Part shown: positions 2,910 to 32,021 of the stretch, piece by piece
Numbering within the stretch: position 1 is the first letter of the stretch
Layout: each line of letters begins with the position of its first letter
Assembly (NCBI GenBank): GCA_900320675.1
Contig: ONTD01000028.1
Span: 1 to 37,556 of the forward strand
DNA: 37,556 bases
From: an uncultured bacterium
GTDB taxonomy: Bacteria; Cyanobacteriota; Vampirovibrionia; Gastranaerophilales; Gastranaerophilaceae
Reading direction: 5' to 3'
The notes under the pieces: generated by a model
The model's database searches: none
Told to the model about the DNA's origin: nothing
The model's input: only the letters and a program-made list of their open reading frames with translations
Program-made: the position numbers and the translations under genes

Positions 2910-4139
2910 TTATTCGTAGCGAAGTGCATCAATCGGATTTAATAAAGATGCCTTATATGCAGGATAATATCCAAATAAGACTCCTATTGCTCCGGAAAAT
3001 CCAAGGGAAAGTGCAATAGAAAAACCTGAAATCAATATATTCATTGAGGAAAAAATGTGAATACATTCTGAGCATAGTACACCTATTATTACTCCTGCAA
3101 TTCCTCCAATTATAGATAACAAAAATGACTCGATTAAAAACTGTATGCGTATATCGCTTGCTTTTGCTCCGATTGCCATCCTTATACCAATTTCTTTTGT
3201 TCTTTCTGTTACTGACACAAGCATAATATTCATAATTCCGATACCGCCTACAAGAAGTGATACGGAAGCTATGGCGCCAAGAAGTATTGACATAGTTTTT
3301 GCGGACGACTTTATTGTTTCCTGCATTTCGGCAAGATTTCTTATCTCAAAATCGTTGTCTTGAGTTTTTCCTATGTGGTGTCGTTGTTTTAAAATATCTG
3401 TGATGTCGCTTTGGGTTGTATCAAGTATATCTGAATCGGTTGCCTTCACGTTTATCATACTTACTGTTCCCGGAAAAGCTGTTCCGAATACCTTTTTTTG
3501 TGCTGTGGTAATTGGAATAAATACCAAATCATCCTGATCCATTCCCATACCGCTTTGCCCTTTTGATTTCAAAAGTCCTATAATTTTAAACGGAACATTC
3601 CCGATACGCATAGTTTTATTAATCGGATCAACATCTCCGAATAATTCTGTTGCGACAGTGTTGCCTATTATTGCAACTTTAGAACTGTTTTGATTATCTT
3701 CCGGTACAAAATTTCTTCCGCTTGAAATTTCATAATTTCTGATAAACAGGTATGAACCAGTTGTTCCTCCGATGGTAGAGGACCAGTTTTGATTACCATA
3801 GGTGAGTTGTTTGCTCTCGGAAGAATATGGAGCTACTGCAAGTATCCCTCGAGCATTTTTTTCTATAGCTTCGGCATCTTTTAATGTAAGCGTAGGTTTT
3901 GTTCCGAATCCCATACGTACACCGCCGGAATTTGCTGAGGCTGAGCGTACCATAAGAAGATTTGAACCCATGGATTCCATATCTTTTGCAATTTTTTCTC
4001 TCGCTCCTGTGCCGACAGCGAGCATTATAATGACTGCACTTACACCTATAATAATACCTAAACTGGTAAGCATTGAGCGCATTTTATTTATTTTTAACGA
4101 AATTATCGCCATTTTGAATATCGATTTGAAATCAAGCAT
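2910..4139 (-). CDS. ABC transporter permease, MacB/FtsX-type (4 TM with large periplasmic domain)
   Basis: 409 aa. It has an N-terminal TM helix, a ~230-aa extracytoplasmic domain and a C-terminal FtsX-type 3-TM bundle ending in the typical PAYKASLLNPIDALRYE. An AAGGA RBS lies 7 nt before the ATG. Confidence 0.9.
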   Translation of the reverse strand: MLDFKSIFKMAIISLKINKMRSMLTSLGIIIGVSAVIIMLAVGTGAREKIAKDMESMGSNLLMVRSASANSGGVRMGFGTKPTLTLKDAEAIEKNARGILAVAPYSSESKQLTYGNQNWSSTIGGTTGSYLFIRNYEISSGRNFVPEDNQNSSKVAIIGNTVATELFGDVDPINKTMRIGNVPFKIIGLLKSKGQSGMGMDQDDLVFIPITTAQKKVFGTAFPGTVSMINVKATDSDILDTTQSDITDILKQRHHIGKTQDNDFEIRNLAEMQETIKSSAKTMSILLGAIASVSLLVGGIGIMNIMLVSVTERTKEIGIRMAIGAKASDIRIQFLIESFLLSIIGGIAGVIIGVLCSECIHIFSSMNILISGFSIALSLGFSGAIGVLFGYYPAYKASLLNPIDALRYE

Positions 4140-4314: not shown

Positions 4315-5031
4315 TCACGTCTCCCTTGTTCTGTGTTTTACCCACTCAGCTTTTGGCATATCAAGTACTATATTTCCGTCCTTAAACTTAACAACACGTT
4401 TTGTATATTCCGCTATGTCAGGTTCATGGGTTACCAGTACAATGGTTTTACCCATTTCTTCATTAAGTCTGACAAAGAATTCCATAACTTCAATACTTGT
4501 TTTAGTATCAAGGTTTCCTGTCGGCTCGTCCGCCAAAATAAGCGGTGCATCATTGACAATTGCTCTTGCGATTGCAACACGTTGCTGCTGCCCGCCGGAC
4601 ATTTGATTTGGCATGTGGTCTTCTCTGTTTTTCAGACCTACAATATTCAATGCCCATTTAGCACGTTCAATTCTTTCACTTTCAGAAATACCCTTGTATA
4701 TCATAGGAAGACATACGTTATCTAAAGCCGAAGTCCTTGATATAAGGTTAAATCCCTGAAATATAAAACCTATTTTTTCGCATCTCACCATAGCCAGACT
4801 GTTTGAGTCAAGATGAAGCATATCGCGTCCTTCCAGATAATATTCTCCGGATGTCGGTTTATCAAGTGTGCCGAGCATGTTCATAAAAGTGGATTTTCCG
4901 GAGCCGGAAGTACCCATGATTGCGACGAATTCTCCATTTTCCACGTTAAGGGAAACTCCGTTTAGTGCATTGAAGCTTTCTTCGCCGGTTTGGTATGTTT
5001 TTATTGCATTTCTTACTTCTATTAAACTCAT
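4315..5031 (-). CDS. ABC transporter ATP-binding protein (MacB/LolD/DevA-type)
   Basis: Walker A GTSGSGKST, signature MSGGQQQRVAIARA and Walker B ILADEPTGNLD are all present. Confidence 0.92.
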   Translation of the reverse strand: MSLIEVRNAIKTYQTGEESFNALNGVSLNVENGEFVAIMGTSGSGKSTFMNMLGTLDKPTSGEYYLEGRDMLHLDSNSLAMVRCEKIGFIFQGFNLISRTSALDNVCLPMIYKGISESERIERAKWALNIVGLKNREDHMPNQMSGGQQQRVAIARAIVNDAPLILADEPTGNLDTKTSIEVMEFFVRLNEEMGKTIVLVTHEPDIAEYTKRVVKFKDGNIVLDMPKAEWVKHRTRET

Positions 5032-5057: not shown

Positions 5058-6224
5058 TTAGAACATTCCAGGCGGTTTACGGCGTTGGTTTTTGCCTTTT
5101 TCATGTTTAACAACGTTGGAAGATCCGACAATAACTTTATCCCCTTCTTTTATCTCTTTAGAAATTATTTCAAATTTGGAATCGTCGCTTGCTCCTGTTG
5201 TTATATCCACTCTGTTAGGTTTTTTGTCTTTCATAATCCATAACCCTTGAGATTTATATTTTTTGCCGTCGGTTTCAGGAGTGTATTTCAATGCAATAGT
5301 CGGCGCACAAAGTACATCCTCGCTCTTACTTGTGATAATTGAGACATTTGCAGTCATCCCGGGTTTGAGCATCAAATCAGGATTATCAACTTCAACTATT
5401 ACGGAGTACGTTACGACATTAGATACTGTTGTAGGCTCTAATCTCACTTGAGTAACTTTTCCGTCAAAAACACTGTCAGGATAGCCGTCTAATGTGTAGG
5501 TTACTTCCTGACCTTCTTTAACTTTTCCGATATCAGCTTCTGATACGTTTACTTCAATTTGCATTTTTGTTAAGTCTTGCGCTATCGTAAATAGTTCAGG
5601 TGCCTGAAAGCTTGCGGCAACCGGCTGCCCAAGGTCGATTTTTCTTGCGATTACCGTTCCGTCAACCGGAGCAATTATTTTAGTGTAGCCTAAATTTGTT
5701 AAGGCGGTTTGATATGAGGCTCTCGATTGTTGAATTTTTGCCCTTGCTGCCCCTACTTGTGCCAAGTTAGACAGGTAGTCGCTTTCAGCTTGATCTAATT
5801 CACTTTTTGCAATAAAGTTTTTGGCATAAAGATTTTTGTATCGGGTGTATGTCTTTCTGGACATTTCCGTAACGGCTTGAATTCTTGCCATATCTGATTC
5901 TGCGGAATTTATTTGGGCTAAATTTTGTTCAACGGTTGCCTGAAAGTTTGCAGGATCTATTTGCGCCAATAATTGTCCTTTTTTAACTTGCGAATTGTAG
6001 TCTACATATATCGCCTTAATCAATCCTGAAACGGTAGAACCGACACTTACTGTGTTTACCGGATTAATTGTTCCGGAAGCTTCTACTACCTGTGTTATTG
6101 TACACTTTTGTACCTTTTGTGTTTCGTAGTGAACCCTATGTTTTATAGCACTATGTACAAAACCGCAGCCTATAAGTGCTGCTATAGCTAAACCTGCAAT
6201 TATATATTTTTTCTTGTTTGCCAT
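5058..6224 (-). CDS. Periplasmic adaptor (membrane fusion protein, HlyD/MacA/DevB family)
   Basis: 388 aa with an N-terminal anchor, coiled-coil hairpin, lipoyl and beta-barrel segments typical of MFPs. It is positioned between the tolC-like and ABC genes. Confidence 0.9.
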   Translation of the reverse strand: MANKKKYIIAGLAIAALIGCGFVHSAIKHRVHYETQKVQKCTITQVVEASGTINPVNTVSVGSTVSGLIKAIYVDYNSQVKKGQLLAQIDPANFQATVEQNLAQINSAESDMARIQAVTEMSRKTYTRYKNLYAKNFIAKSELDQAESDYLSNLAQVGAARAKIQQSRASYQTALTNLGYTKIIAPVDGTVIARKIDLGQPVAASFQAPELFTIAQDLTKMQIEVNVSEADIGKVKEGQEVTYTLDGYPDSVFDGKVTQVRLEPTTVSNVVTYSVIVEVDNPDLMLKPGMTANVSIITSKSEDVLCAPTIALKYTPETDGKKYKSQGLWIMKDKKPNRVDITTGASDDSKFEIISKEIKEGDKVIVGSSNVVKHEKGKNQRRKPPGMF

Positions 6225-6227
6225 ATT

Positions 6228-7712
6228 TTAATCCTCTACCGTTATTGTTATTTCTTGCGGCAAGGCAATTAATCTTTCAAGATTCGCCCTGGCTACGCTG
6301 TAATTGTAAACTGTTTGAACGTACGTATTCTGAGCCGTATTGTAATTCTGTTTTGCATCCTGTAACTCTATGTAATCACCCAGACCTACTGCGTATCTTC
6401 CGTCAGCAAGCTCAAAGTTTTCTCTTGTCTGACGAACTTTTACTGCCATTAATGGAATTTGTTTTTCCAACTGTACCATATTTATGTAGGCATTTTGGAT
6501 GTCAAAGTATATGTTCTGCTTCAATAAATCAATATCGTTTTTCGCTAAATCAACCTGTAATTTGCCGTTATCAATTTTAAATTTTTCTTGTGCGATATTT
6601 ACAGAAGTTTGCATCCCGACACTTGCATTAAGAGAGTTTGTCCTTACATGATCTCTAAAACCGTAACCGATTGAACCTGTAATATCAGGAAGATATTCTC
6701 GCTTAATGTAATTTAGTGCCTGTTTCATTGCTTCTAATGTGGCTTCATACGCCTTTAAATCAGGACGATTTTTTAAAGCTAATTCCTCACATTCTTCAAA
6801 GGTATACTTAAACGGTGTAAATTTATAATTTTCAAGAATTGCAAGTTTTTCAACCCTTGTTGTAAGCACAGCGTCATTTACCCCTGACGGCGGTGTGCTT
6901 ATATCTTTTTTTTGTTCTGATAATTTATCAAGATTTACCGGAATTTCGTTTGTAGAATAGTTAAACATTTCCGTATTTGAAATTTCATAAGCCGGTGCGT
7001 GCGCCACAAACATAGAATTATTCAATAAAACCAATGCGTTTTGGTAATTCTTTGTAGATTGCACAAAATTGATTTTTGAATCACTAAGGTAAACTTCTGC
7101 GTTCACTAAATCAATTTTAGACCTTATTCCTTGTTCAAAAAAAGCTTTCGTTCTCTGATAATTTCTTTCATTTATATCAACATTTGCTTTGTTAATATCC
7201 ATTGTCGCTTTTGCGGCAAGTACCCCGTAATAATTGGTCTTTACGTTAAATATCGTATCAATTACCGTATTATCAAAGTTGTATAAAGCTGCGATTTTGT
7301 TAAATTTTTGCATTTTAATTTGTGAATTGGTTTTCCCGAAATTCCAAATAAGCTGGTTTAATCCGGCATTAGCACTATAATAATTGCTGTTAATATCTCT
7401 GCTTTTTGCATAGGTTCCGTTGTAGTAGTAGCCGGTTCCTACGCTTAATGTCGGAAAAAATGATGCTTTTGCTATACTGACATCATTTTTTGATATTTTG
7501 TAATTATATGCTGCTCGTTTTATATTTGGGCTATTATCCAGAGCTATTTGAATACAATCAGATAGTGTTAATTTTTCACCCGCTTTTATTAAAGCGGTCT
7601 TTGATTCAAACGCAAAGGAATAAGAAGTTGTTAAAAGAAAAAGTATTAGTGCAGCACATATTCTCAGCATGTCTTTATATTTCAAATTATTAATCCTCAA
7701 GTTCTCACACAT
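6228..7712 (-). CDS. tolC: TolC-family outer membrane efflux protein
   Basis: Two-repeat alpha/beta TolC architecture with a signal peptide (LRICAALILFLLTTSYSFA). The ORF-track TTG start at 7745 lies inside the gene's own promoter (-10 at 7728-7733), so the real start is the ATG at 7712 or 7670. Confidence 0.85.
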   Translation of the reverse strand: MCENLRINNLKYKDMLRICAALILFLLTTSYSFAFESKTALIKAGEKLTLSDCIQIALDNSPNIKRAAYNYKISKNDVSIAKASFFPTLSVGTGYYYNGTYAKSRDINSNYYSANAGLNQLIWNFGKTNSQIKMQKFNKIAALYNFDNTVIDTIFNVKTNYYGVLAAKATMDINKANVDINERNYQRTKAFFEQGIRSKIDLVNAEVYLSDSKINFVQSTKNYQNALVLLNNSMFVAHAPAYEISNTEMFNYSTNEIPVNLDKLSEQKKDISTPPSGVNDAVLTTRVEKLAILENYKFTPFKYTFEECEELALKNRPDLKAYEATLEAMKQALNYIKREYLPDITGSIGYGFRDHVRTNSLNASVGMQTSVNIAQEKFKIDNGKLQVDLAKNDIDLLKQNIYFDIQNAYINMVQLEKQIPLMAVKVRQTRENFELADGRYAVGLGDYIELQDAKQNYNTAQNTYVQTVYNYSVARANLERLIALPQEITITVED

Positions 7713-7727
7713 ATACCTAACGACATG

Positions 7728-7756
7728 ATTATATAATTTGTTCAAAATTATAGCAA
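7728..7756 (-). promoter_or_regulatory. Sigma70-type promoter of the tolC efflux operon (TTGCTA-17-TATAAT)
   Basis: Minus-strand hexamers at 7756-7751 and 7733-7728 with an exact 17-nt spacer. Confidence 0.55.
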
Positions 7757-7868: not shown

Positions 7869-8387
7869 TTACCCGTTACCGCCAAAGAGTCTTTGTTGAC
7901 CTTCTTTTGCACGTTGTTCGTAGTTTTGAATTTGTGTCTTACAAATATCAAGATCACCTGCAATCTGAGTTTTCTTTCTTTCTAATACTTTTTCTTTTTC
8001 GTGAATAAGTTTTGCTTCATACTTAGCAAACTGCTGCATAGATTGGTCGTAAAAACTCTTATACATAGCTTGCTGATAATACTGTTGGACTTGAGCGTCC
8101 TGTTTTGCCATCATCTGTTGATAATACGGAGTCTGCATTAATTGTTGCATTTGATTCATTGCGCTAATCTGACTGTACTGGGAAGATGCATTCATATATC
8201 CCATTTGTCTTCCGTACATTGAACCTGGTGTGCTGAGCATTTCGCCTATTGAAACTCCCGAATCTGCGATGTTCTCCGCATACGATTTTAAATCTTCTAT
8301 TTCTTGTGTAATTTGCGTCAATTGATACTCATAATCAGCCTTTTTGCTGATGAGATCATTGATTTTCCAATGAGCTACTAAAAACAT
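7869..8387 (-). CDS. Hypothetical Q/M/Y-rich coiled-coil protein, 172 aa
   Basis: Long ORF with a purine-rich RBS (AAGGTAGGGG) 5 nt upstream of the ATG, its own promoter-like box (S1) and its own terminator. I recognise no family. Confidence 0.6.
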   Translation of the reverse strand: MFLVAHWKINDLISKKADYEYQLTQITQEIEDLKSYAENIADSGVSIGEMLSTPGSMYGRQMGYMNASSQYSQISAMNQMQQLMQTPYYQQMMAKQDAQVQQYYQQAMYKSFYDQSMQQFAKYEAKLIHEKEKVLERKKTQIAGDLDICKTQIQNYEQRAKEGQQRLFGGNG

Positions 8388-8463
8388 AATCTTACCCCTA
8401 CCTTATCTTTTTTATAACCTTTTAACTAACCTTACATTTATATAAAAACTTTTGGGTTTTTAA

Positions 8464-18385: not shown

Positions 18386-18424
18386 TGTTAAGTTATGTAA
18401 CAAGTTATGTAAATTGTGAAATTA
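18386..18424 (+). promoter_or_regulatory. TGTTAA-box promoter-like element S2
   Basis: TGTTAA-GTTA-TGTAAC-aagttatgtaaattg-TGAAATTA. It ends 57 nt upstream of the 645-aa gene ATG. Confidence 0.6.
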
Positions 18425-18481
18425 GGCTTTCTCAAATGTTTTTATTTAAGTAAGAGAGTATAAAAAGAAAGAGAGCATATT

Positions 18482-20419
18482 ATGGTTGACGGTGTTTCCT
18501 CAGGTATCAAATCCCTAAATCTACAGCAATTGCAGGCACTACAAAAAGCTAAAAGTGTTTCTAAAGGTGCTGAAAAAACCGGCTTTGATAAAGACGGTTC
18601 TATAATGCAGAAAAAAGAGGGTTTGTCTGCAAGTGAACTTTGGAGTGCACAATCAAATAAAAATGCAGGTAAAGCCGAAAATGCTTCCAATGCAGCTAAT
18701 GATGGGGCTAAACTTTACAGTGATCCAAGTAAATTGGAAACTCTTGCTGATATAGAAAAAGCAAGAGCCGAATTGAAGAAAGATTCAAAAGGTTTTGCTA
18801 TTGGCGATAAAAATTCCTTGAATGATGCCAAGACACGATTAAGTTTAATGCAACGCGAAAGTGAACTTAAGGGAATGTACAGGAGCAGTGATCCTAGCAA
18901 TTTATCCCAAGCTCAATTGCAAGAAGCTAAAGATTACAGATCTACAAAAGTCGGTTCGTTTGGTATATCTACATCAAATCAAAAATCATTTGATGCTATA
19001 TCAAACCTAATGGAAAAGAATTGGGCACTTGAAGCTCAACAAAATGGTACTTCCGCTAAAGCTGAAACAAAGCCGACAACAAATAATAATAAGGTAGAAA
19101 CAAATAATAACGCAACAAATGCGGAGAAATCCAATAGTGCAACATCAGCAGATAAAGCTAATAATGCCGAACAAACTGATAATAATGAAAATAACAACAA
19201 CGGTATAGACAGCAGTAAAAACCATGAGGCTGCATCAAAGTCAAATTCGGTTAATACCGGTGCTTGGTCAATAAGTATGTTCAAATCAAGCTATATGGAT
19301 GCGCATACAAAGGCAGCCGAATCCGGCGATCAAATGGATCTAGCGGATAATACTAATGCAAATTCCGCTGAACTTCAACAGGATATTCAAGCGACTAACA
19401 ATGAAATGAAAGCCGAAAATGCAAAGACAACGCAAGATGTAAAGAAAAATCAGCAGGCTATAAAGAAAGAGCAGAAAAATGTTGCCAAGAACGAAAAAGA
19501 AGTTCAAAAAGCGATGAAAGAAATGGAAGCTGCAACTTCCGGAATGGATAGAACCGGAAGTGGTGTAAACAGTGCTAATTCGCTAAAACTTGCTTCTGAC
19601 TTGCAGCCGCAGCCGGCACAACCGGCAGATAGAGCTGACGGGGCAAAAGGTGCTGATCCTGCCGCAGGCGGTGCCGCTCAACCGGCAGCAGCTGCTAATC
19701 AAACGGCTGAAACCGATGCGGCTCAACAAGCTGAACAAGGTCAAGCCCAAGATCAACAAATTAATCAGGCTCAGGCAAAGATGGACAAAGCTTCAAAAGC
19801 AGCTAAAAAATCTACAAAACAAATGACCAAATTGAATACCAAAAGCGGTAAACAAGTTACAAGAATGACGCAGCACGCAAAAGTCAAGACGGCTGAACTT
19901 AATCAGCAAAAGGCTCAGTTAAATACAAATGCTACAACTGCGCAACAAGTAAATACAGTAGGTCAAAGAACCGAAAGCTCAGGTAACTCCGCAGTTAAAA
20001 AAGGTGTAACTGAAGGCGTAATGGGCGGTGTTGAAATTGTTACAGGAAAAGCTATGCAGAACAATCCATATACATCTGCAATTGGTGTAGCATTGGAACA
20101 AAAAGGTAACATGGATGTTGTATCCGGTGCTACAGGTGCATTACAAGGTGCAATAACAGGTGATGCCGGTGCTACTACCCAAGCAAAAGCTACTGATGCA
20201 AATAAACAGACGGTTGTTTCTCTGTCCGATGCCGGAGTTGCAATTTCTACCGGCGGAAGCGTTATTAAAAACGGTGCGTCATTGCAAAAAACTGTAAAAA
20301 CTACCGGTACAACAATTAAAAAGACTCAAAAACAAGAAAAGACTATTGTAAAACAACAAACTCAAGCTAAACAAATGGCACAAGAAGCTGCCGCTAAAAA
20401 AGCTCAAAAATTAAAATAA
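18482..20419 (+). CDS. Hypothetical low-complexity N/Q/A/K/T-rich protein, 645 aa, no signal peptide
   Basis: It is the only long ORF in this interval and all overlapping ORFs look like shadows. It has its own TGTTAA-box promoter (S2) and its own terminator (20449-20481). Confidence 0.7.
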   Translation: MVDGVSSGIKSLNLQQLQALQKAKSVSKGAEKTGFDKDGSIMQKKEGLSASELWSAQSNKNAGKAENASNAANDGAKLYSDPSKLETLADIEKARAELKKDSKGFAIGDKNSLNDAKTRLSLMQRESELKGMYRSSDPSNLSQAQLQEAKDYRSTKVGSFGISTSNQKSFDAISNLMEKNWALEAQQNGTSAKAETKPTTNNNKVETNNNATNAEKSNSATSADKANNAEQTDNNENNNNGIDSSKNHEAASKSNSVNTGAWSISMFKSSYMDAHTKAAESGDQMDLADNTNANSAELQQDIQATNNEMKAENAKTTQDVKKNQQAIKKEQKNVAKNEKEVQKAMKEMEAATSGMDRTGSGVNSANSLKLASDLQPQPAQPADRADGAKGADPAAGGAAQPAAAANQTAETDAAQQAEQGQAQDQQINQAQAKMDKASKAAKKSTKQMTKLNTKSGKQVTRMTQHAKVKTAELNQQKAQLNTNATTAQQVNTVGQRTESSGNSAVKKGVTEGVMGGVEIVTGKAMQNNPYTSAIGVALEQKGNMDVVSGATGALQGAITGDAGATTQAKATDANKQTVVSLSDAGVAISTGGSVIKNGASLQKTVKTTGTTIKKTQKQEKTIVKQQTQAKQMAQEAAAKKAQKLK

Positions 20420-23770: not shown

Positions 23771-25048
23771 TTACTTAGCGATGCTTACATCGTTTAGCAT
23801 AATAACTTTAATTTCTTCACCAGCTTTTGCATGGTAGTTCAAACCTTTTGTGATCAAACCGGTTGCTAAACCAACTGCTGCACCAACAGGAGCACCAATT
23901 GCAATACCTGTACCGATTTTATCAGGGCTAGGAATGAATGCCAAACCAACACCAGCACCAGTACCAACAGCACCGCCGGTTACTGTGCATAATGCTAATT
24001 TACCAGCTGTCATCCAAGGACCTTCTTTTAATTCATAGTTTTTGTAGAACGGTTTAGCGTTCATAGAAACTACTTGGCCGCTAGGAAGAACTGCTTTTGT
24101 GATTTGAGCATAAACTCTAGCATTCTTGTTGAACCATTTTGGATCTGTAATGCTTATTACGTTACCGTAGAATTTAGTACCAGCTGGGAATAATGTAGTA
24201 CCTTCTTCAGTAGCGATATCTTCGTTAGCTACGAATGCAATGCTATCACCTTCGCTAGCTACTTCTGATTTGAATTTTTCATCGAATGCAACGTACATTG
24301 CGTTACCTTCTTTGATTACGTTTCTCTTGTTTGTAATAACAACTTCATCGCTTGGAGCTTTCTTAACAGCGTTCAAGTGTTCAGTTCCTAATACTTTTTC
24401 TAATTCAGAACCAACGTATTGAGATTTAATTAAACCTGCTTTTTGTCTTAATCTGTAAAGAATTACAGCAGCTTCAGCTCTTGATAATACATCGTTTGGT
24501 CTCAATTCTGATGGGTTTGGATAATTTACATAGATACCATAGTTCAATGTTTTAGCGTAAGCATTTTTAGCCCATGCCGGAACTTCTGAAGCATCAATGA
24601 AATTCTTCAATAATGAAGCATCAGCGTTCATATCTTTTGTAATATGGCTGATTACTGATTGTGTTTCAGCTCTTGACATCAATTTGCTTGGTTTGAATGT
24701 TCCATCCGGATATCCGTATACCAAACCTAATTGTTGAGATCTTAGTACATCTTTGTAATAAGAATCAGATGCGTTAACATCACTGAAGATGTTTGAAATT
24801 GTTACGTCAAGATTTTCATTTGTTAAAACTCTTAATAAAGCTTGTACAAATTCTACTCTTGATACTGTACCTTCCGGATTGAATTTTCCGCCGGTAAGGC
24901 TCATAACGTTGTTGTCTACAACGTTATTGATTTCTGTTGAAGCCCAATAATTTGTGCTTACGTCAGAAATTTTTGCAGCAAATGTCGGAACTGTAGTGCT
25001 CAAAGCAACTACGCCAGCTGCAAATAAACCAACTAAAAGTTTTCTCAT
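23771..25048 (-). CDS. Secreted SLH-domain protein with C-terminal glycine-zipper segment
   Basis: Signal peptide (MRKLLVGLFAAGVVALSTTVPTFA), three SLH repeats, a ~170-aa middle domain and a G/A-rich hydrophobic C-terminal region. It has a strong sigma70 promoter, an AAGAGG RBS and a strong terminator. Confidence 0.85.
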   Translation of the reverse strand: MRKLLVGLFAAGVVALSTTVPTFAAKISDVSTNYWASTEINNVVDNNVMSLTGGKFNPEGTVSRVEFVQALLRVLTNENLDVTISNIFSDVNASDSYYKDVLRSQQLGLVYGYPDGTFKPSKLMSRAETQSVISHITKDMNADASLLKNFIDASEVPAWAKNAYAKTLNYGIYVNYPNPSELRPNDVLSRAEAAVILYRLRQKAGLIKSQYVGSELEKVLGTEHLNAVKKAPSDEVVITNKRNVIKEGNAMYVAFDEKFKSEVASEGDSIAFVANEDIATEEGTTLFPAGTKFYGNVISITDPKWFNKNARVYAQITKAVLPSGQVVSMNAKPFYKNYELKEGPWMTAGKLALCTVTGGAVGTGAGVGLAFIPSPDKIGTGIAIGAPVGAAVGLATGLITKGLNYHAKAGEEIKVIMLNDVSIAK

Positions 25049-25095
25049 CTTTTACTACCTCTTTTTTTTACTAACTACTCTAGTAATAAACTTTT

Positions 25096-25124
25096 ATCTT
25101 CCTGTAGTATATATTAGAAAAAAT
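25096..25124 (-). promoter_or_regulatory. Sigma70-type promoter of the SLH gene (TTTACA-17-TATACT)
   Basis: Minus-strand hexamers at 25124-25119 and 25101-25096. Confidence 0.55.
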
Positions 25125-25165
25125 AATTTGTAAAGTCGTTTATTTTTTTTAATATAAATGTATGA

Positions 25166-25204
25166 TGTTAAATTTTGTAACAAAATCAATTATACATGAA
25201 ATTA
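25166..25204 (+). promoter_or_regulatory. TGTTAA-box promoter-like element S4 (no downstream ORF)
   Basis: TGTTAA-ATTT-TGTAAC-aaaatcaattataca-TGAAATTA. The second hexamer and the 8-mer are identical to S2, at identical spacing. Confidence 0.6.
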
Positions 25205-25252
25205 TACAAAAAATATATACTTATTATATATAAGAGAACATTAAATAAACAC

Positions 25253-25265
25253 GAGAGAGAGAGAG
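25253..25265. repeat. (GA)6 dinucleotide repeat, with a second (GA)4 at 25291-25298
   Basis: Read directly: GAGAGAGAGAGAG and GAGAGAGA. Confidence 0.85.
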
Positions 25266-25331
25266 TATTATTTAAATCCGTTTTAATTAAGAGAGAGAAA
25301 AATTCCTATTCCTACCTTCCTAAAAAAGATT

Positions 25332-25354
25332 AGCCCCAAAAGCGGGGCTTTTTT
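25332..25354 (+). terminator. Orphan intrinsic terminator upstream of ribF
   Basis: AGCCCC-aaaagc-GGGGCT followed by TTTTT. No plus-strand CDS precedes it. Confidence 0.7.
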
Positions 25355-25389
25355 CTTGTCTTTGTTGATAATATTCTTTCTTTGTTTAC

Positions 25390-25397
25390 TGTATAAT
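25390..25397 (+). promoter_or_regulatory. TGTATAAT -10 element placed 6 nt from the ribF ATG (leaderless candidate)
   Basis: TGTATAAT-atttgt-ATG, with no Shine-Dalgarno sequence. Confidence 0.45.
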
Positions 25398-25403
25398 ATT
25401 TGT

Positions 25404-26303
25404 ATGAAAATATTTTCAAAATTAACAGAGAACAGAGATTTAAGTCTTGCATTGGGATATTTTGACGGCGTTCATAAAGGGCATCAGTCAGTTATTAAAA
25501 GAGCTGTAGAATATGCAAAATTGAACTCAAAAAAATCTGCGGTTATAACCTTCAAAGACCATCCGTGTTGTTATTTTTGGGGCGTTTGTCCAAAATATAT
25601 TCTTTCAAGAGAAGAAAGGCGTGCCAAAATAGAAAATTTGGGAGTGGATTATCTTTACGAATTGGATTTTGCTGATGTTGCAGATATGAGTGCAAAAGAT
25701 TATTTAGAGCATGTTATAATAAAATATTTTAGACCTGCGGCGATAACTACCGGATTTAATCATAATTTTGGTTTAAATAAAAGCGGAGATACAAAATTTC
25801 TTTCAGATATGGCAGATACATACGGATACATGTACTTTGAAACTCCGGAACAAAAAGTAACGGGTGAAACTGTCAGCAGTACAAAGATAAGAGAACTTCT
25901 ATCCGGCGGTAAAATAGAATTGGCAAATGATATGCTTGGGTATAAATTCCCAATAGAAGGTGAAGTTGTTGAAGGACAGAAACTCGGCAGAAAAATAGGC
26001 TTTAGAACCGCAAATCTTGTTTACCCGGGGGAGCTTATTGACTTACCGTTTGGAGTTTATTCGGTTGACGTGAAATATGGCGGCAGGGTGTATCGCGGAA
26101 TTACTAATTTTGGGCTTCGCCCTACTGTTTCTGATGATAACAGATGTACTTTAGAAACCCATATTCTGGATTTTGATGAAGAAATTTACGGAAAATCTTT
26201 AAGGATTGAGTTTAACAAGATGATTCGTCCGGAAAAAAAATTTAACTCAATTGATGACTTACGTAATCAAATTAATAAAGATATTGCGATTGCCTATAGA
26301 TAA
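25404..26303 (+). CDS. ribF: Bifunctional riboflavin kinase / FMN adenylyltransferase
   Basis: GYFDGVHKGHQ motif and a C-terminal riboflavin kinase domain. The start is set at ATG 25404 (MKIFSKL). The ORF-track TTG extension from 25356 is hydrophobic junk that overlaps the terminator and promoter. Confidence 0.92.
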   Translation: MKIFSKLTENRDLSLALGYFDGVHKGHQSVIKRAVEYAKLNSKKSAVITFKDHPCCYFWGVCPKYILSREERRAKIENLGVDYLYELDFADVADMSAKDYLEHVIIKYFRPAAITTGFNHNFGLNKSGDTKFLSDMADTYGYMYFETPEQKVTGETVSSTKIRELLSGGKIELANDMLGYKFPIEGEVVEGQKLGRKIGFRTANLVYPGELIDLPFGVYSVDVKYGGRVYRGITNFGLRPTVSDDNRCTLETHILDFDEEIYGKSLRIEFNKMIRPEKKFNSIDDLRNQINKDIAIAYR

Positions 26304-30783: not shown

Positions 30784-30822
30784 TGTTAAGAATTGTTAAA
30801 ACATGTGCAAATTCTAGCAATA
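30784..30822 (+). promoter_or_regulatory. TGTTAA-box promoter-like element S3
   Basis: TGTTAA-GAAT-TGTTAA-aacatgtgcaaattc-TAGCAATA. It ends 71 nt upstream of ATG 30894. Confidence 0.6.
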
Positions 30823-30893
30823 AATTTTCTTGAGAGGTATTTAACAGGTAGAATAGGAATAGACAATATTATTTATTGAAAGGAAAAGATAAA

Positions 30894-32021
30894 ATGATGC
30901 AAATTCCAAATTTACCCAATTGCAAACCGGTAGCACAACAACAGCCGAGCTACAATGCAGTTAAAATTGACATCCACAATCCGATGGTGAATGTTCCGAC
31001 AGGTCAGATTCCTGCAGTTGAACCTCAGTATGAAAAAACAACGGCACCTATTTATGAGTATCCGAAAGCTGAAACTCAACCATATTACATGCCGCCGCAA
31101 ATTACAGCTCCGGAAGTATCTGCTCAATCGCAAACTCCCGTAGTCGTTCCTCCGGCAGTAAACCCTCAACCTGAACAAACTGTTGCCAGAGAAATCCCTC
31201 TTAATCCGGAAAAAATTCCGCCGGCACCGGTTGTAACAGAAGCTCCAAAGTCTGAAGAAAAGAAAAACGAACAGGTAAAAGATGAGGTCAGAGAAGAAGC
31301 TCCGGCTGCCGCAGAAAAACCTGTAGAAGTTGTAGAACCTGAAGAAATTAAACCTCAAGTTGATATAAATGAATTTATCGCAAAATTAACAAATCCTGAT
31401 TATGACGTTCAAGCTGCTGCTATGGAACAAATAGCGGATATGGTTGATAACGATAAAGAAAAAGCCTCAGATTTGTTAGATACAAAAGTAGTTGATGCTT
31501 TAAACGATATAATCAAAGCTGATACAACAGCTTTAGAAGGCCCTAGTGCTGAAGTTCAAGCTCAGAGAAAATCTATAAACGAATCTCAAATGGCAAAAGA
31601 AGAAAAAGCCGCTGCTCTTGAAGCAACCATAACTCCTAAAGAAAAAGCGGAAAGAAATAAAAGTTACGCAATCTTTACAGCAGCAATCTTACAAAAATTG
31701 TACGGTGATGAAGTAAAAAGATTGAAAAATATGACAGTTCCTCTAACTGAACTCCCTGGTGCAATTACTATGGTTGAACAGTTAAAAGGAAATCCGAACC
31801 CGACAGTCAGAGCGTCTGCTATCGAAGCTTTAAGCTACATCCAAGACCCAAGCTACAAAAAAGACTTGAAGACTGTGTTCGAAATAGCTCAAAATGATCA
31901 GGATGAAAATGTAAGAGCTGCAGCTACAGAAGCTTTAGATAAATTAAACAAAATAGCTGATGAAGTTGCCCTAAACCCTGAAAATAAAGAGCAAATTGAA
32001 AAAACAAAACAAGCTGCATAA
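30894..32021 (+). CDS. Pro/Glu/Val-rich N-terminal region plus C-terminal HEAT (PBS-lyase-like) repeats
   Basis: HEAT-like repeats are present (NPNPTVRASAIEALSYIQDP and DQDENVRAAATEALDKL). The start is set at ATG 30894, after the AAAGGAAAAG RBS. TGTTAA-box promoter S3 lies upstream and a terminator lies downstream. Confidence 0.7.
   Translation: MMQIPNLPNCKPVAQQQPSYNAVKIDIHNPMVNVPTGQIPAVEPQYEKTTAPIYEYPKAETQPYYMPPQITAPEVSAQSQTPVVVPPAVNPQPEQTVAREIPLNPEKIPPAPVVTEAPKSEEKKNEQVKDEVREEAPAAAEKPVEVVEPEEIKPQVDINEFIAKLTNPDYDVQAAAMEQIADMVDNDKEKASDLLDTKVVDALNDIIKADTTALEGPSAEVQAQRKSINESQMAKEEKAAALEATITPKEKAERNKSYAIFTAAILQKLYGDEVKRLKNMTVPLTELPGAITMVEQLKGNPNPTVRASAIEALSYIQDPSYKKDLKTVFEIAQNDQDENVRAAATEALDKLNKIADEVALNPENKEQIEKTKQAA

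Follow-up and report, generated by a model that had tools for sequence, protein, structure and literature searches.

The cyanobacterial small RNA (sRNA) Yfr1 carries a conserved, unpaired CU-rich motif between hairpins and is reported to target the mRNAs of SLH-type porins in Prochlorococcus. RsaE and RoxS, and Staphylococcus aureus RNAIII with its UCCC motifs, display C-rich motifs in the hairpin loops of well-folded RNAs, and the sigmaE-dependent sRNAs MicA, RybB, and MicL are short RNAs with an intrinsic terminator and a dedicated non-housekeeping promoter. The sequence analyzed here, called the window below, is a 37,556-nucleotide (nt) stretch of contig ONTD01000028.1 (assembly GCA_900320675.1) from an uncultured bacterium of the Gastranaerophilaceae (Cyanobacteriota, Vampirovibrionia, Gastranaerophilales). 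In it, a 355-bp spacer separates an SLH-domain gene on the minus strand (23771-25048) from ribF on the plus strand (ATG at 25404, gene to 26303; Pfam FAD_syn and Flavokinase). Positions 25166-25356 (+) of this spacer hold a promoter module, a 5′ AU hairpin, two GA-rich blocks, the CU-rich core ATTCCTATTCCTACCTTCCTAAAA, and an intrinsic terminator. A preliminary reading of the sequence (the original prediction) proposed that this orphan promoter-to-terminator unit encodes an sRNA of ~145 nt, and our analysis supports that proposal. From sequence comparison, we assign a probability of about 0.6 to a trans-acting, base-pairing sRNA that acts in a small regulon and forms a new family across the Gastranaerophilales.

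We searched with blastn for the intergenic region in 80 genomes that carry an orthologue of the SLH gene. A block corresponding to window positions 25166-25357 is 69-82% identical in over 50 genomes, between flanks that cannot be aligned. Searches with nhmmer and a covariance model (R1) yielded 70 non-redundant copies with E values from 1e-8 to 1e-22; the best values were 1e-47 for the profile hidden Markov model and 1e-22 for the covariance model. The block that these ~70 species conserve coincides exactly with the stretch that begins with the TGTTAA box and ends with the T-run. A perfect match to the 21-nt core ATTCCTATTCCTACCTTCCTA is found once in each of 56 of 185,579 species-representative genomes and in 20 metagenome contigs. 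The majority of the 56 genomes carry the label Gastranaerophilales or Melainabacteria; the others are unclassified metagenome-assembled genomes (MAGs) entered as 'uncultured bacterium' or bear odd labels ('Clostridium sp. CAG:768/967', 'Muribaculaceae') that we judged to be mislabellings; none of the 56 has a credible assignment to another lineage. The window contains no second match to the 21-nt core, even at 3 mismatches (0 expected). An apparent second copy ~1.5 kb downstream of the SLH gene, found as an 18-nt match, was rejected as only TTTTGTTACAAAA upstream of another gene, a spurious match that arises because the box is nearly palindromic. All differences among sister strains fall on positions at which other members of the family vary too; they affect 0 of 24 positions in the core, 0 of 31 in the terminator, and 4 of 68 in the GA-rich middle.

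The genes around the unit change from clade to clade. In most genomes it is convergent with the gene for pyruvate kinase (pyk). One clade carries it in inverted orientation, immediately after the pyk terminator. The nearest relatives no longer have pyk beside it, and it is flanked there by miaB (convergent) and the SLH gene (divergent). Some genomes have it on a different contig from the SLH gene. Adjacency to ribF is seen only in the species of the window, from which the usual neighbors pyk and miaB are absent. Because box, body, and terminator stay together while their surroundings change, the element must carry its own promoter and terminator. This independence of neighbors, together with a co-varying terminator stem and the lack of a conserved open reading frame (ORF), backs the proposed sRNA unit and makes it very probable that the sequence is a real, conserved non-coding transcription unit.

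The order of elements is shared across the family (Table 1). From 5′ to 3′, T[GA]T[TA]AA-N4-TGTAAC is followed by a variable spacer of 15 nt, TGAAAT, a variable spacer of 11 nt, and an invariant hairpin of 6-7 bp, TATATAC-TTT-ATATATA. This AU hairpin is followed by AACATTAAATAAACAC, which most copies have, by (GA)n-GTA, by ATCCGTTTAA, which is present in the closer half of the family, and by AAGAGAGAG. A spacer that is short and variable then leads to ATTCCTATTCCTACCTTCCTAAAA, behind which lie ~8 nt rich in A and T, the GC-rich hairpin, and the T-run. Both purine blocks that the original prediction described, (GA)6G and AAGAGAGAGAAAAA, are present. The (GA)n run is a length-variable microsatellite, with 3-8 repeats in different species and a 2-nt deletion in strain L083. 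Some clades (L121, 1110-1130; L124; L143; L134) have an extra small hairpin after the AU hairpin, with arms that differ yet remain complementary (CGCAUU/AAUGCG, GAGC/GCUC, GCUC/GAGC, GGUU/AACC); the clade of the window lacks it.

Table 1 Positions in the window of the parts of the sRNA unit and of two candidate target sites
Feature	Position	Strand	Conservation or basis
Promoter box, direct repeats TGTTAA-N4-TGTAAC, 10-bp period, second repeat at -35	25166..25181	+	Kept upstream of every aligned species copy
-10-like element TGAAAT, 15 nt after TGTAAC	25197..25202	+	(Nearly) invariant in 42 aligned species
5′ AU hairpin/box (A)UAUAUA-CUUAU-UAUAUA(U)	25213..25231	+	Family consensus TATATACTTTATATATA; paired in 42/42 (RNAalifold)
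GA-rich block 1, (GA)6G then UAU	25253..25265	+	GAGAGAGTA block in most members; repeat number varies
Block ATCCGTTT(T)AA	25276..25286	+	Kept in closer family half; TTTAAAT in more distant half
GA-rich block 2, AAGAGAGAGAAAAA	25289..25302	+	AAGAGAGAG at least 90% conserved in 42-species alignment
CU-rich core ATTCCTATTCCTACCTTCCTAAAA, three UUCCUA units, anti-Shine-Dalgarno-like, proposed seed	25302..25325	+	Most conserved segment
Intrinsic terminator, stem AGCCCC/GGGGCT, loop AAAAGC, T-run	25332..25354	+	Sequence and consensus scan
Candidate target site AGGTAGAATAGGAATAG, 5′ untranslated region (5′UTR) of HEAT-repeat gene (ATG 30894)	30846..30862	+	Best non-self complementary site in window
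Candidate target site AAGGTAGG, ribosome-binding site of gene for a 172-amino-acid (aa) protein (ATG 8387)	8397..8404	-	Perfect 8-nt complement of core CCUACCUU

The terminator defines the 3′ end of the unit and the transcribed strand. The hairpin AGCCCC-aaaagc-GGGGCT lies at 25332-25349 and is followed by five T residues at 25350-25354, as the original prediction had it, and a consensus scan agrees, finding 3 terminator-like sites in the 900 bp from 24800 to 25700 compared with 0.4 expected. A GC-rich hairpin with a T-run is present in 69 of the 70 family copies, and the sole exception is truncated by the end of its contig. Across these copies the inner stem takes at least 20 different, complementary sequences, including GCCCC/GGGGC, ACCCC/GGGGT, CCTCC/GGAGG, and CCTTC/GAAGG, and RNAalifold registers compensatory substitutions of CG by UA pairs. 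The hairpin of the window is terminator-like on the minus strand as well, but across the family only the plus-strand side always has a T-run, which fixes the transcribed strand.

At the other end of the unit, the TGTTAA box at 25166-25171 was confirmed and proved to be the first half of a tandem repeat. The spacers on either side of TGAAAT vary in sequence but not in length. In some genomes the T-run of the upstream pyk terminator touches the first repeat of the box, so that there is no space for any promoter further upstream. Taking TGTAAC as the -35 and (T)GAAAT as the -10 element, we infer that transcription starts at ~25208-25212 and gives an RNA of ~145 nt. The combination TGTAAC-N15-TGAAAT has 106 matches in 1.68 Mb of collected sequence, ~100 of which precede the sRNA (96 by a strict core test and 4 with variant cores), with some sRNA copies counted twice owing to overlapping loci. 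The other 6 comprise 4 matches upstream of protein genes and 2 that look like chance. A conventional sigma70 pair, with TGAAAT or TTGAAA as -35 and TATACT or TATATA as -10, was rejected for its spacers of 13-14 or 22 nt. An NtcA-type GTA-N8-TAC site is matched only partially, with no conserved -10 element at the required distance. A -35 element that contains AAC resembles those of extracytoplasmic function (ECF) sigma promoters. The TGTAAC element and its spacer of 15-16 nt fit this comparison, but the -10-like (T)GAAAT/GCAAT could not be assigned to a known ECF group. The motif thus suggests recognition by an alternative, ECF-like sigma factor or by a tandem-binding activator of the response-regulator type, both of which would fit equally.

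The same module precedes protein genes in the window. One of the 4 protein-gene matches belongs to a 645-aa gene (ATG at 18482), where the pattern spans 18386-18422 (+) with one mismatch. TGTTAA-N4-TGTAAC occurs here at 18386-18401, and variants are found at 30784-30799 and 8502-8486 (-). The promoter of the 645-aa gene reads TGTTAAgttaTGTAAC-N15-TGAAAT, and the leader that follows, within 18386-18481, contains AAGAGAGTA and AGAGAGCAT motifs. A match at 13 of 14 positions between the unit and this leader had been noted, and it exists, although each segment was placed one position off and in fact lies at 25282-25295 and 18445-18458. We regard this match as part of the larger promoter-plus-leader architecture that the two loci have in common. 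Of the shared element or leader mimicry that the original prediction suggested, the common promoter module and AAGAGAGTA-type motif stand, but they point to co-regulation and not to mimicry. The 645-aa protein is of low complexity, rich in N, Q, K, and A, and has no Pfam or NCBIfam match. Upstream of both the 172-aa gene (8387, -) and the HEAT-repeat gene (30894) lies a sister version of the module, TGTTAA-N4-TGTTAA-N17-GCAAT; these sites are presumably the other TGTTAA boxes of the original prediction. The individual promoters read TGTTAAgaatTGTTAA-N15-TAGCAAT (30784-30821, +) for the HEAT-repeat gene, which encodes 375 aa, and TGTTAAgaaaTGTTAAC-N14-TGGCAAT (8502-8465, -) for the 172-aa gene.

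The CU-rich core is the candidate seed of the RNA. The original prediction had singled out a patch rich in C and U (25302-25323) that adjoins the terminator hairpin on its 5′ side, and this is indeed the most conserved segment of the unit. The mean predicted unpaired probability of the core is 0.64, and with the family alignment RNAalifold predicts only two terminal hairpins and an unstructured middle. Intramolecular pairing between the GA-rich and CU-rich segments was rejected, as RNAalifold finds none and their registers do not match. The core sequence ACCUUCCUA resembles the 3′ tail of 16S rRNA, ACCUCCUUA.

The genes that score best as predicted targets resemble the sRNA in their type of promoter. 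The motif AGGUAGAAUAGGAAUAG of the HEAT-repeat gene would form 10 bp, a 1-nt bulge, and 5 bp with the core, and the predicted duplex of -19.2 kcal/mol lies beyond the 0.1 percentile of -17.4 obtained from 12,510 windows of 30 nt on both strands. The site is part of a 25-nt island in the 5′UTR, ATTTAAcaGGTAGAATAGGAATAGAC, that is kept together with the box promoter in six genomes whose HEAT-repeat proteins are 47-69% identical. For the 172-aa gene, the ribosome-binding site motif AAGGUAGG is a perfect complement of CCUACCUU, and the site ranks first among the 36 translation-initiation regions of the window and fifth in the whole-window scan. The top two duplexes among these 36 regions therefore fall on the 172-aa and HEAT-repeat genes; as box promoters precede just three protein genes of the window and these are two of them, the outcome has a chance probability of ~0.005. 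We extended the comparison to 1533 initiation regions from the collected loci, for which the background median was -8.9 and the 5th percentile -15.1. The best two families were one of ~296-aa proteins (median -17.6) and the HEAT-repeat gene (median -17.1), and all three of the best predicted target families have the unusual promoter type of the sRNA. The SLH porin-like mRNA, considered by analogy with Yfr1 and MicA, is not supported as a target: its ribosome-binding site offers only a 7-bp match, which ranks 8 of 36.

Members of the ~296-aa family (L231, L241, L207, L209, L219, L107) have N-termini such as MGIGSIA, unknown function, and box promoters; their 5′UTRs contain two AAGGUAGG motifs, and some have a AACTTTATATAAG start that resembles the 5′ box of the sRNA. 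The 172-aa protein is rich in Q, M, and Y and appears by eye to be a coiled coil. Its gene lies upstream of genes for TolC-like (6228-7745), HlyD-like (5058-6224), and MacB-type ABC proteins (4315-5031 and 2910-4139).

These observations can be assembled into a working model. A direct repeat of TGT(T/A)A(A/C) with a 10-bp period, and G(A/C)AAT 16-17 nt further on, would drive transcription of an RNA that starts near 25210, runs through the AU hairpin and a mostly unstructured GA-rich body, and ends at 25332-25354. The seed would be the nearly invariant, unpaired core AUUCCUAUUCCUACCUUCCUAAAA that lies next to the terminator on its 5′ side; it would pair with purine-rich GGUAGG or AGGAAUAGG motifs in the 5′UTRs and ribosome-binding sites of a small number of mRNAs and in this way most probably keep ribosomes from binding. 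Since the putative targets (the genes at 30894 for the HEAT-repeat protein and at 8387 (-) for the 172-aa protein, and the ~296-aa family) share the promoter type, the sRNA would be switched on together with them and limit or time their translation, as a feed-forward or feedback arm of its own regulon. We lean slightly towards action by base pairing through the CU core, and we name the HEAT-repeat, 172-aa, and ~296-aa genes as specific targets only tentatively.

Several results weigh against this interpretation. A CU-rich sequence will pair with any purine run of the Shine-Dalgarno type, which inflates target scores in general, and the core is invariant, so it offers no compensatory changes between sRNA and target for comparison. 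The three most distant HEAT-repeat orthologues read GGTAGAATGGTAAT at the site, which would pair with the standard core with one mismatch and one wobble. The neighboring SLH gene is not enriched as a target, with a family median of -10.5 over 80 genomes, near background. The predicted fold of the window copy is no better than that of shuffled sequences (z = -1.09). RNAalifold, applied to the family alignment, detected compensatory changes in the terminator stem and in no other helix. The AU hairpin shows none because its sequence is invariant, and selection at the RNA level is thus read from sequence conservation. The AU box also precedes a protein gene in one locus (L026), at the same 11-nt distance from TGAAAT. 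It may act as a DNA operator or as a 5′ stabilizing hairpin, and in the first case part of the conservation may lie at the level of DNA. The promoter elements match no consensus that was testable. A search of metagenome collections for transcript-like contigs found none, and the 20 contigs that bear the core are ordinary DNA assemblies.

The rival explanation that survives best, though we consider it unlikely, is that the RNA is bound by a protein, with the three UUCCUA units and the two GAGAGAG blocks titrating or recruiting an RNA-binding protein. CsrB and RsmY titrate CsrA through repeated motifs, and the sRNA described here likewise has short repeated motifs in an unstructured RNA that is invariant in sequence rather than conserved in structure. 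The GA-rich AAGAGAGTA motifs, found again in the leaders of mRNAs from the same regulon, might serve as common binding sites for a protein. However, the motifs on the transcribed strand are not GGA-type CsrA sites and no candidate protein was identified. A protein sponge also has no need of the 15-bp complementarity to a conserved 5′UTR island or of perfect 8-nt matches to the ribosome-binding sites of co-regulated genes.

It is considerably less probable that the locus is mainly a regulatory region at the DNA level, in which factor-binding sites and a bidirectional insulating terminator are conserved and the RNA has no function. The box repeats and the invariant TATATACTTTATATATA palindrome do resemble protein-binding DNA and recur before protein genes, and a hairpin that is terminator-like on both strands would suit an insulator. 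The operator model nevertheless leaves unexplained the CU core, the most conserved part of the unit, which sits 90-110 nt downstream of the promoter elements. Promoter, body, and terminator also keep their order and spacing whatever genes flank them, and the T-run on the plus strand is universal while the terminator shape on the minus strand is not.

The position of the unit in the window raises the question of ribF. A terminator 50 nt upstream of the ribF start codon could belong to a cis-acting leader, such as an attenuator or riboswitch, or be the relic of a rearrangement at ribF. The closest relatives of ribF (57-67% identity) come from MAGs that are labelled Gastranaerophilales or Melainabacteria or are unclassified. 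In the 40 of these loci that we compared, synteny with the window holds downstream of ribF, and none has the SLH gene upstream of it. Many have a terminator 40-72 nt before ribF, and in one (L007) the AGCCCC/GGGGCT stem recurs at an identical distance, but these terminators belong to the preceding co-directional gene, in L007 an aspS-like gene of 592 aa. None of the 40 ribF upstream regions is similar to the intergenic unit, which travels instead with the SLH and pyk neighborhood. The -10 element that the original prediction assigned to ribF, TGTATAAT at 25390-25397, is present upstream of the ATG. In 39 of the 40 relatives (L001-L040) the extended -10 sequence TTTGnnATATAAT is followed by exactly 6 nt and the ATG, and ribF of the window (25385-25406) has the same N6 spacing, TATAAT-atttgt-ATG, without a Shine-Dalgarno sequence. 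This pattern suggests that ribF is transcribed from its own promoter and that its mRNA lacks a leader, a trait conserved among the relatives. ribF therefore neither needs nor uses the upstream unit, which contradicts the alternative of a simple ribF 5′UTR. No FMN or other riboswitch matches the sequence, and a relic would not persist in 70 species. We therefore regard a ribF leader or relic as very improbable.

All contigs of the same species show the order SLH gene, unit, ribF, with at least 23 carrying an identical ribF protein and 24 an identical SLH protein; the junction is therefore real, but specific to the species. The breakpoint of this lineage-specific rearrangement lies at 25356-25400, between the sRNA terminator and the ribF promoter, and in the nearest relatives miaB follows the sRNA and ribF is on a different contig. 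This resolves the apparent 'orphan' terminator before ribF as the end of an sRNA gene that was brought there by rearrangement.

One statement of the original prediction, that the interval has no plausible start codon or ORF, was wrong, as an ATG at 25196 opens an ORF of 45 codons that ends with TAG at 25331-25333, exactly at the foot of the terminator. That this or another micro-ORF encodes a small protein is nonetheless hardly credible: the ORF has no Shine-Dalgarno sequence and was called by no gene caller, its ATG reads CTG in 4 of 7 same-species contigs and a 2-nt deletion in the (GA) run shifts its frame in one (L083), the longest ORFs of the 70 homologues differ in strand, frame, and position so that no small ORF is conserved, with several copies lacking any ATG ORF, and the indels in the alignment are not multiples of three.

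The SLH gene on the opposite strand has a promoter of its own. A sigma70 promoter had been predicted for it, and a scan finds TTTACA-17-TATACT, located at 25134-25106 (-) rather than at 25124-25096. This promoter and the ~50-nt 5′UTR (25049-25134, -) retain 72-88% nucleotide identity where the SLH proteins are 60-90% identical, a pattern that points to leader-based regulation with no connection to the sRNA core. In another contig of the same species (L084, 1-1209), the AMP-binding gene downstream of the SLH gene is cut to 203 aa and joined to a PUA/RNA-methyltransferase gene, through either a strain-level rearrangement or an assembly break.

The proposal that Rfam be searched for a known family was followed, and none matches. 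With Rfam 15 (4227 covariance models, among them those for Yfr1, MicA, RybB, RsaE, 6S RNA, and FMN and other riboswitches) there are 0 matches in the whole window at gathering thresholds, and permissive filters give 11 matches in 25000-25500 with E values of 0.96-9.7 and scores of 10-22 bits, compared with thresholds of 41-95. A full-text literature search for small or non-coding RNAs of Melainabacteria or Gastranaerophilales returned nothing relevant. The Gastranaerophilales are common, uncultured inhabitants of human, rodent, and ruminant guts for which we found no described regulatory RNA in Rfam 15 or in that literature search. It is conceivable, although rather doubtful, that the unit represents the first regulatory RNA family of the Melainabacteria, a nearly structure-free sRNA with a 24-nt core frozen across the order and a promoter type (tandem TGTWAM and GMAAT) that it has in common with its targets. 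Discovery pipelines that rely on RNA structure would miss such a family, which offers them hardly any conserved secondary structure. For annotators, the family supplies a covariance or sequence model for a gene found once per genome, and the 21-nt core can serve as an order-specific marker sequence. If this reading of the unit is correct, the sRNA would define a self-limiting regulon of lineage-specific, low-complexity or coiled-coil proteins of unknown function (the 645-aa, 172-aa, ~296-aa, and HEAT-repeat proteins) under the control of a sigma factor or activator. Promoter, sRNA, and target sites would then make up a complete regulatory circuit in an uncultured phylum, testable without cultivation through the shared promoter motif and the complementary 5′UTR sites.

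Comparison with the systems introduced at the outset places the sRNA outside each of them. It has the short length, intrinsic terminator, and dedicated non-housekeeping promoter of MicA, RybB, and MicL, as well as a conserved putative seed that is predicted to be mostly single-stranded, predicted action at 5′UTRs or ribosome-binding sites, and an adjoining gene for an outer-membrane protein. One difference is that the mRNA of the neighboring SLH porin-like gene is not a favored predicted target. The Rfam match to MicA is noise (15.8 bits against a gathering threshold of 41, E = 8.7) and reflects no relationship in sequence or structure, and RybB has its seed at the 5′ end, whereas the proposed seed here is on the 3′ side, next to the terminator. 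With RsaE, RoxS, and RNAIII the sRNA shares repeated single-stranded pyrimidine motifs that resemble an anti-Shine-Dalgarno sequence and would pair with purine-rich ribosome-binding sites, but those motifs are CCCC or UCCC, while the motifs here are UUCCUA/CCUACCUU in a nearly unstructured RNA from an unrelated lineage. Yfr1 comes from the same broad phylum and is likewise a short RNA with an ultra-conserved, unpaired, pyrimidine-rich motif. However, Yfr1 is ~60 nt long compared with ~145 nt here, its motif and architecture differ, no Yfr family of Rfam matches at E values up to 10, and the link of the present sRNA to an SLH-domain gene is one of synteny only, with no enriched complementarity in 80 genomes. 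The predicted sRNA is therefore a previously undescribed family, outside all of those compared, that would work in the manner of a classical trans-encoded sRNA.

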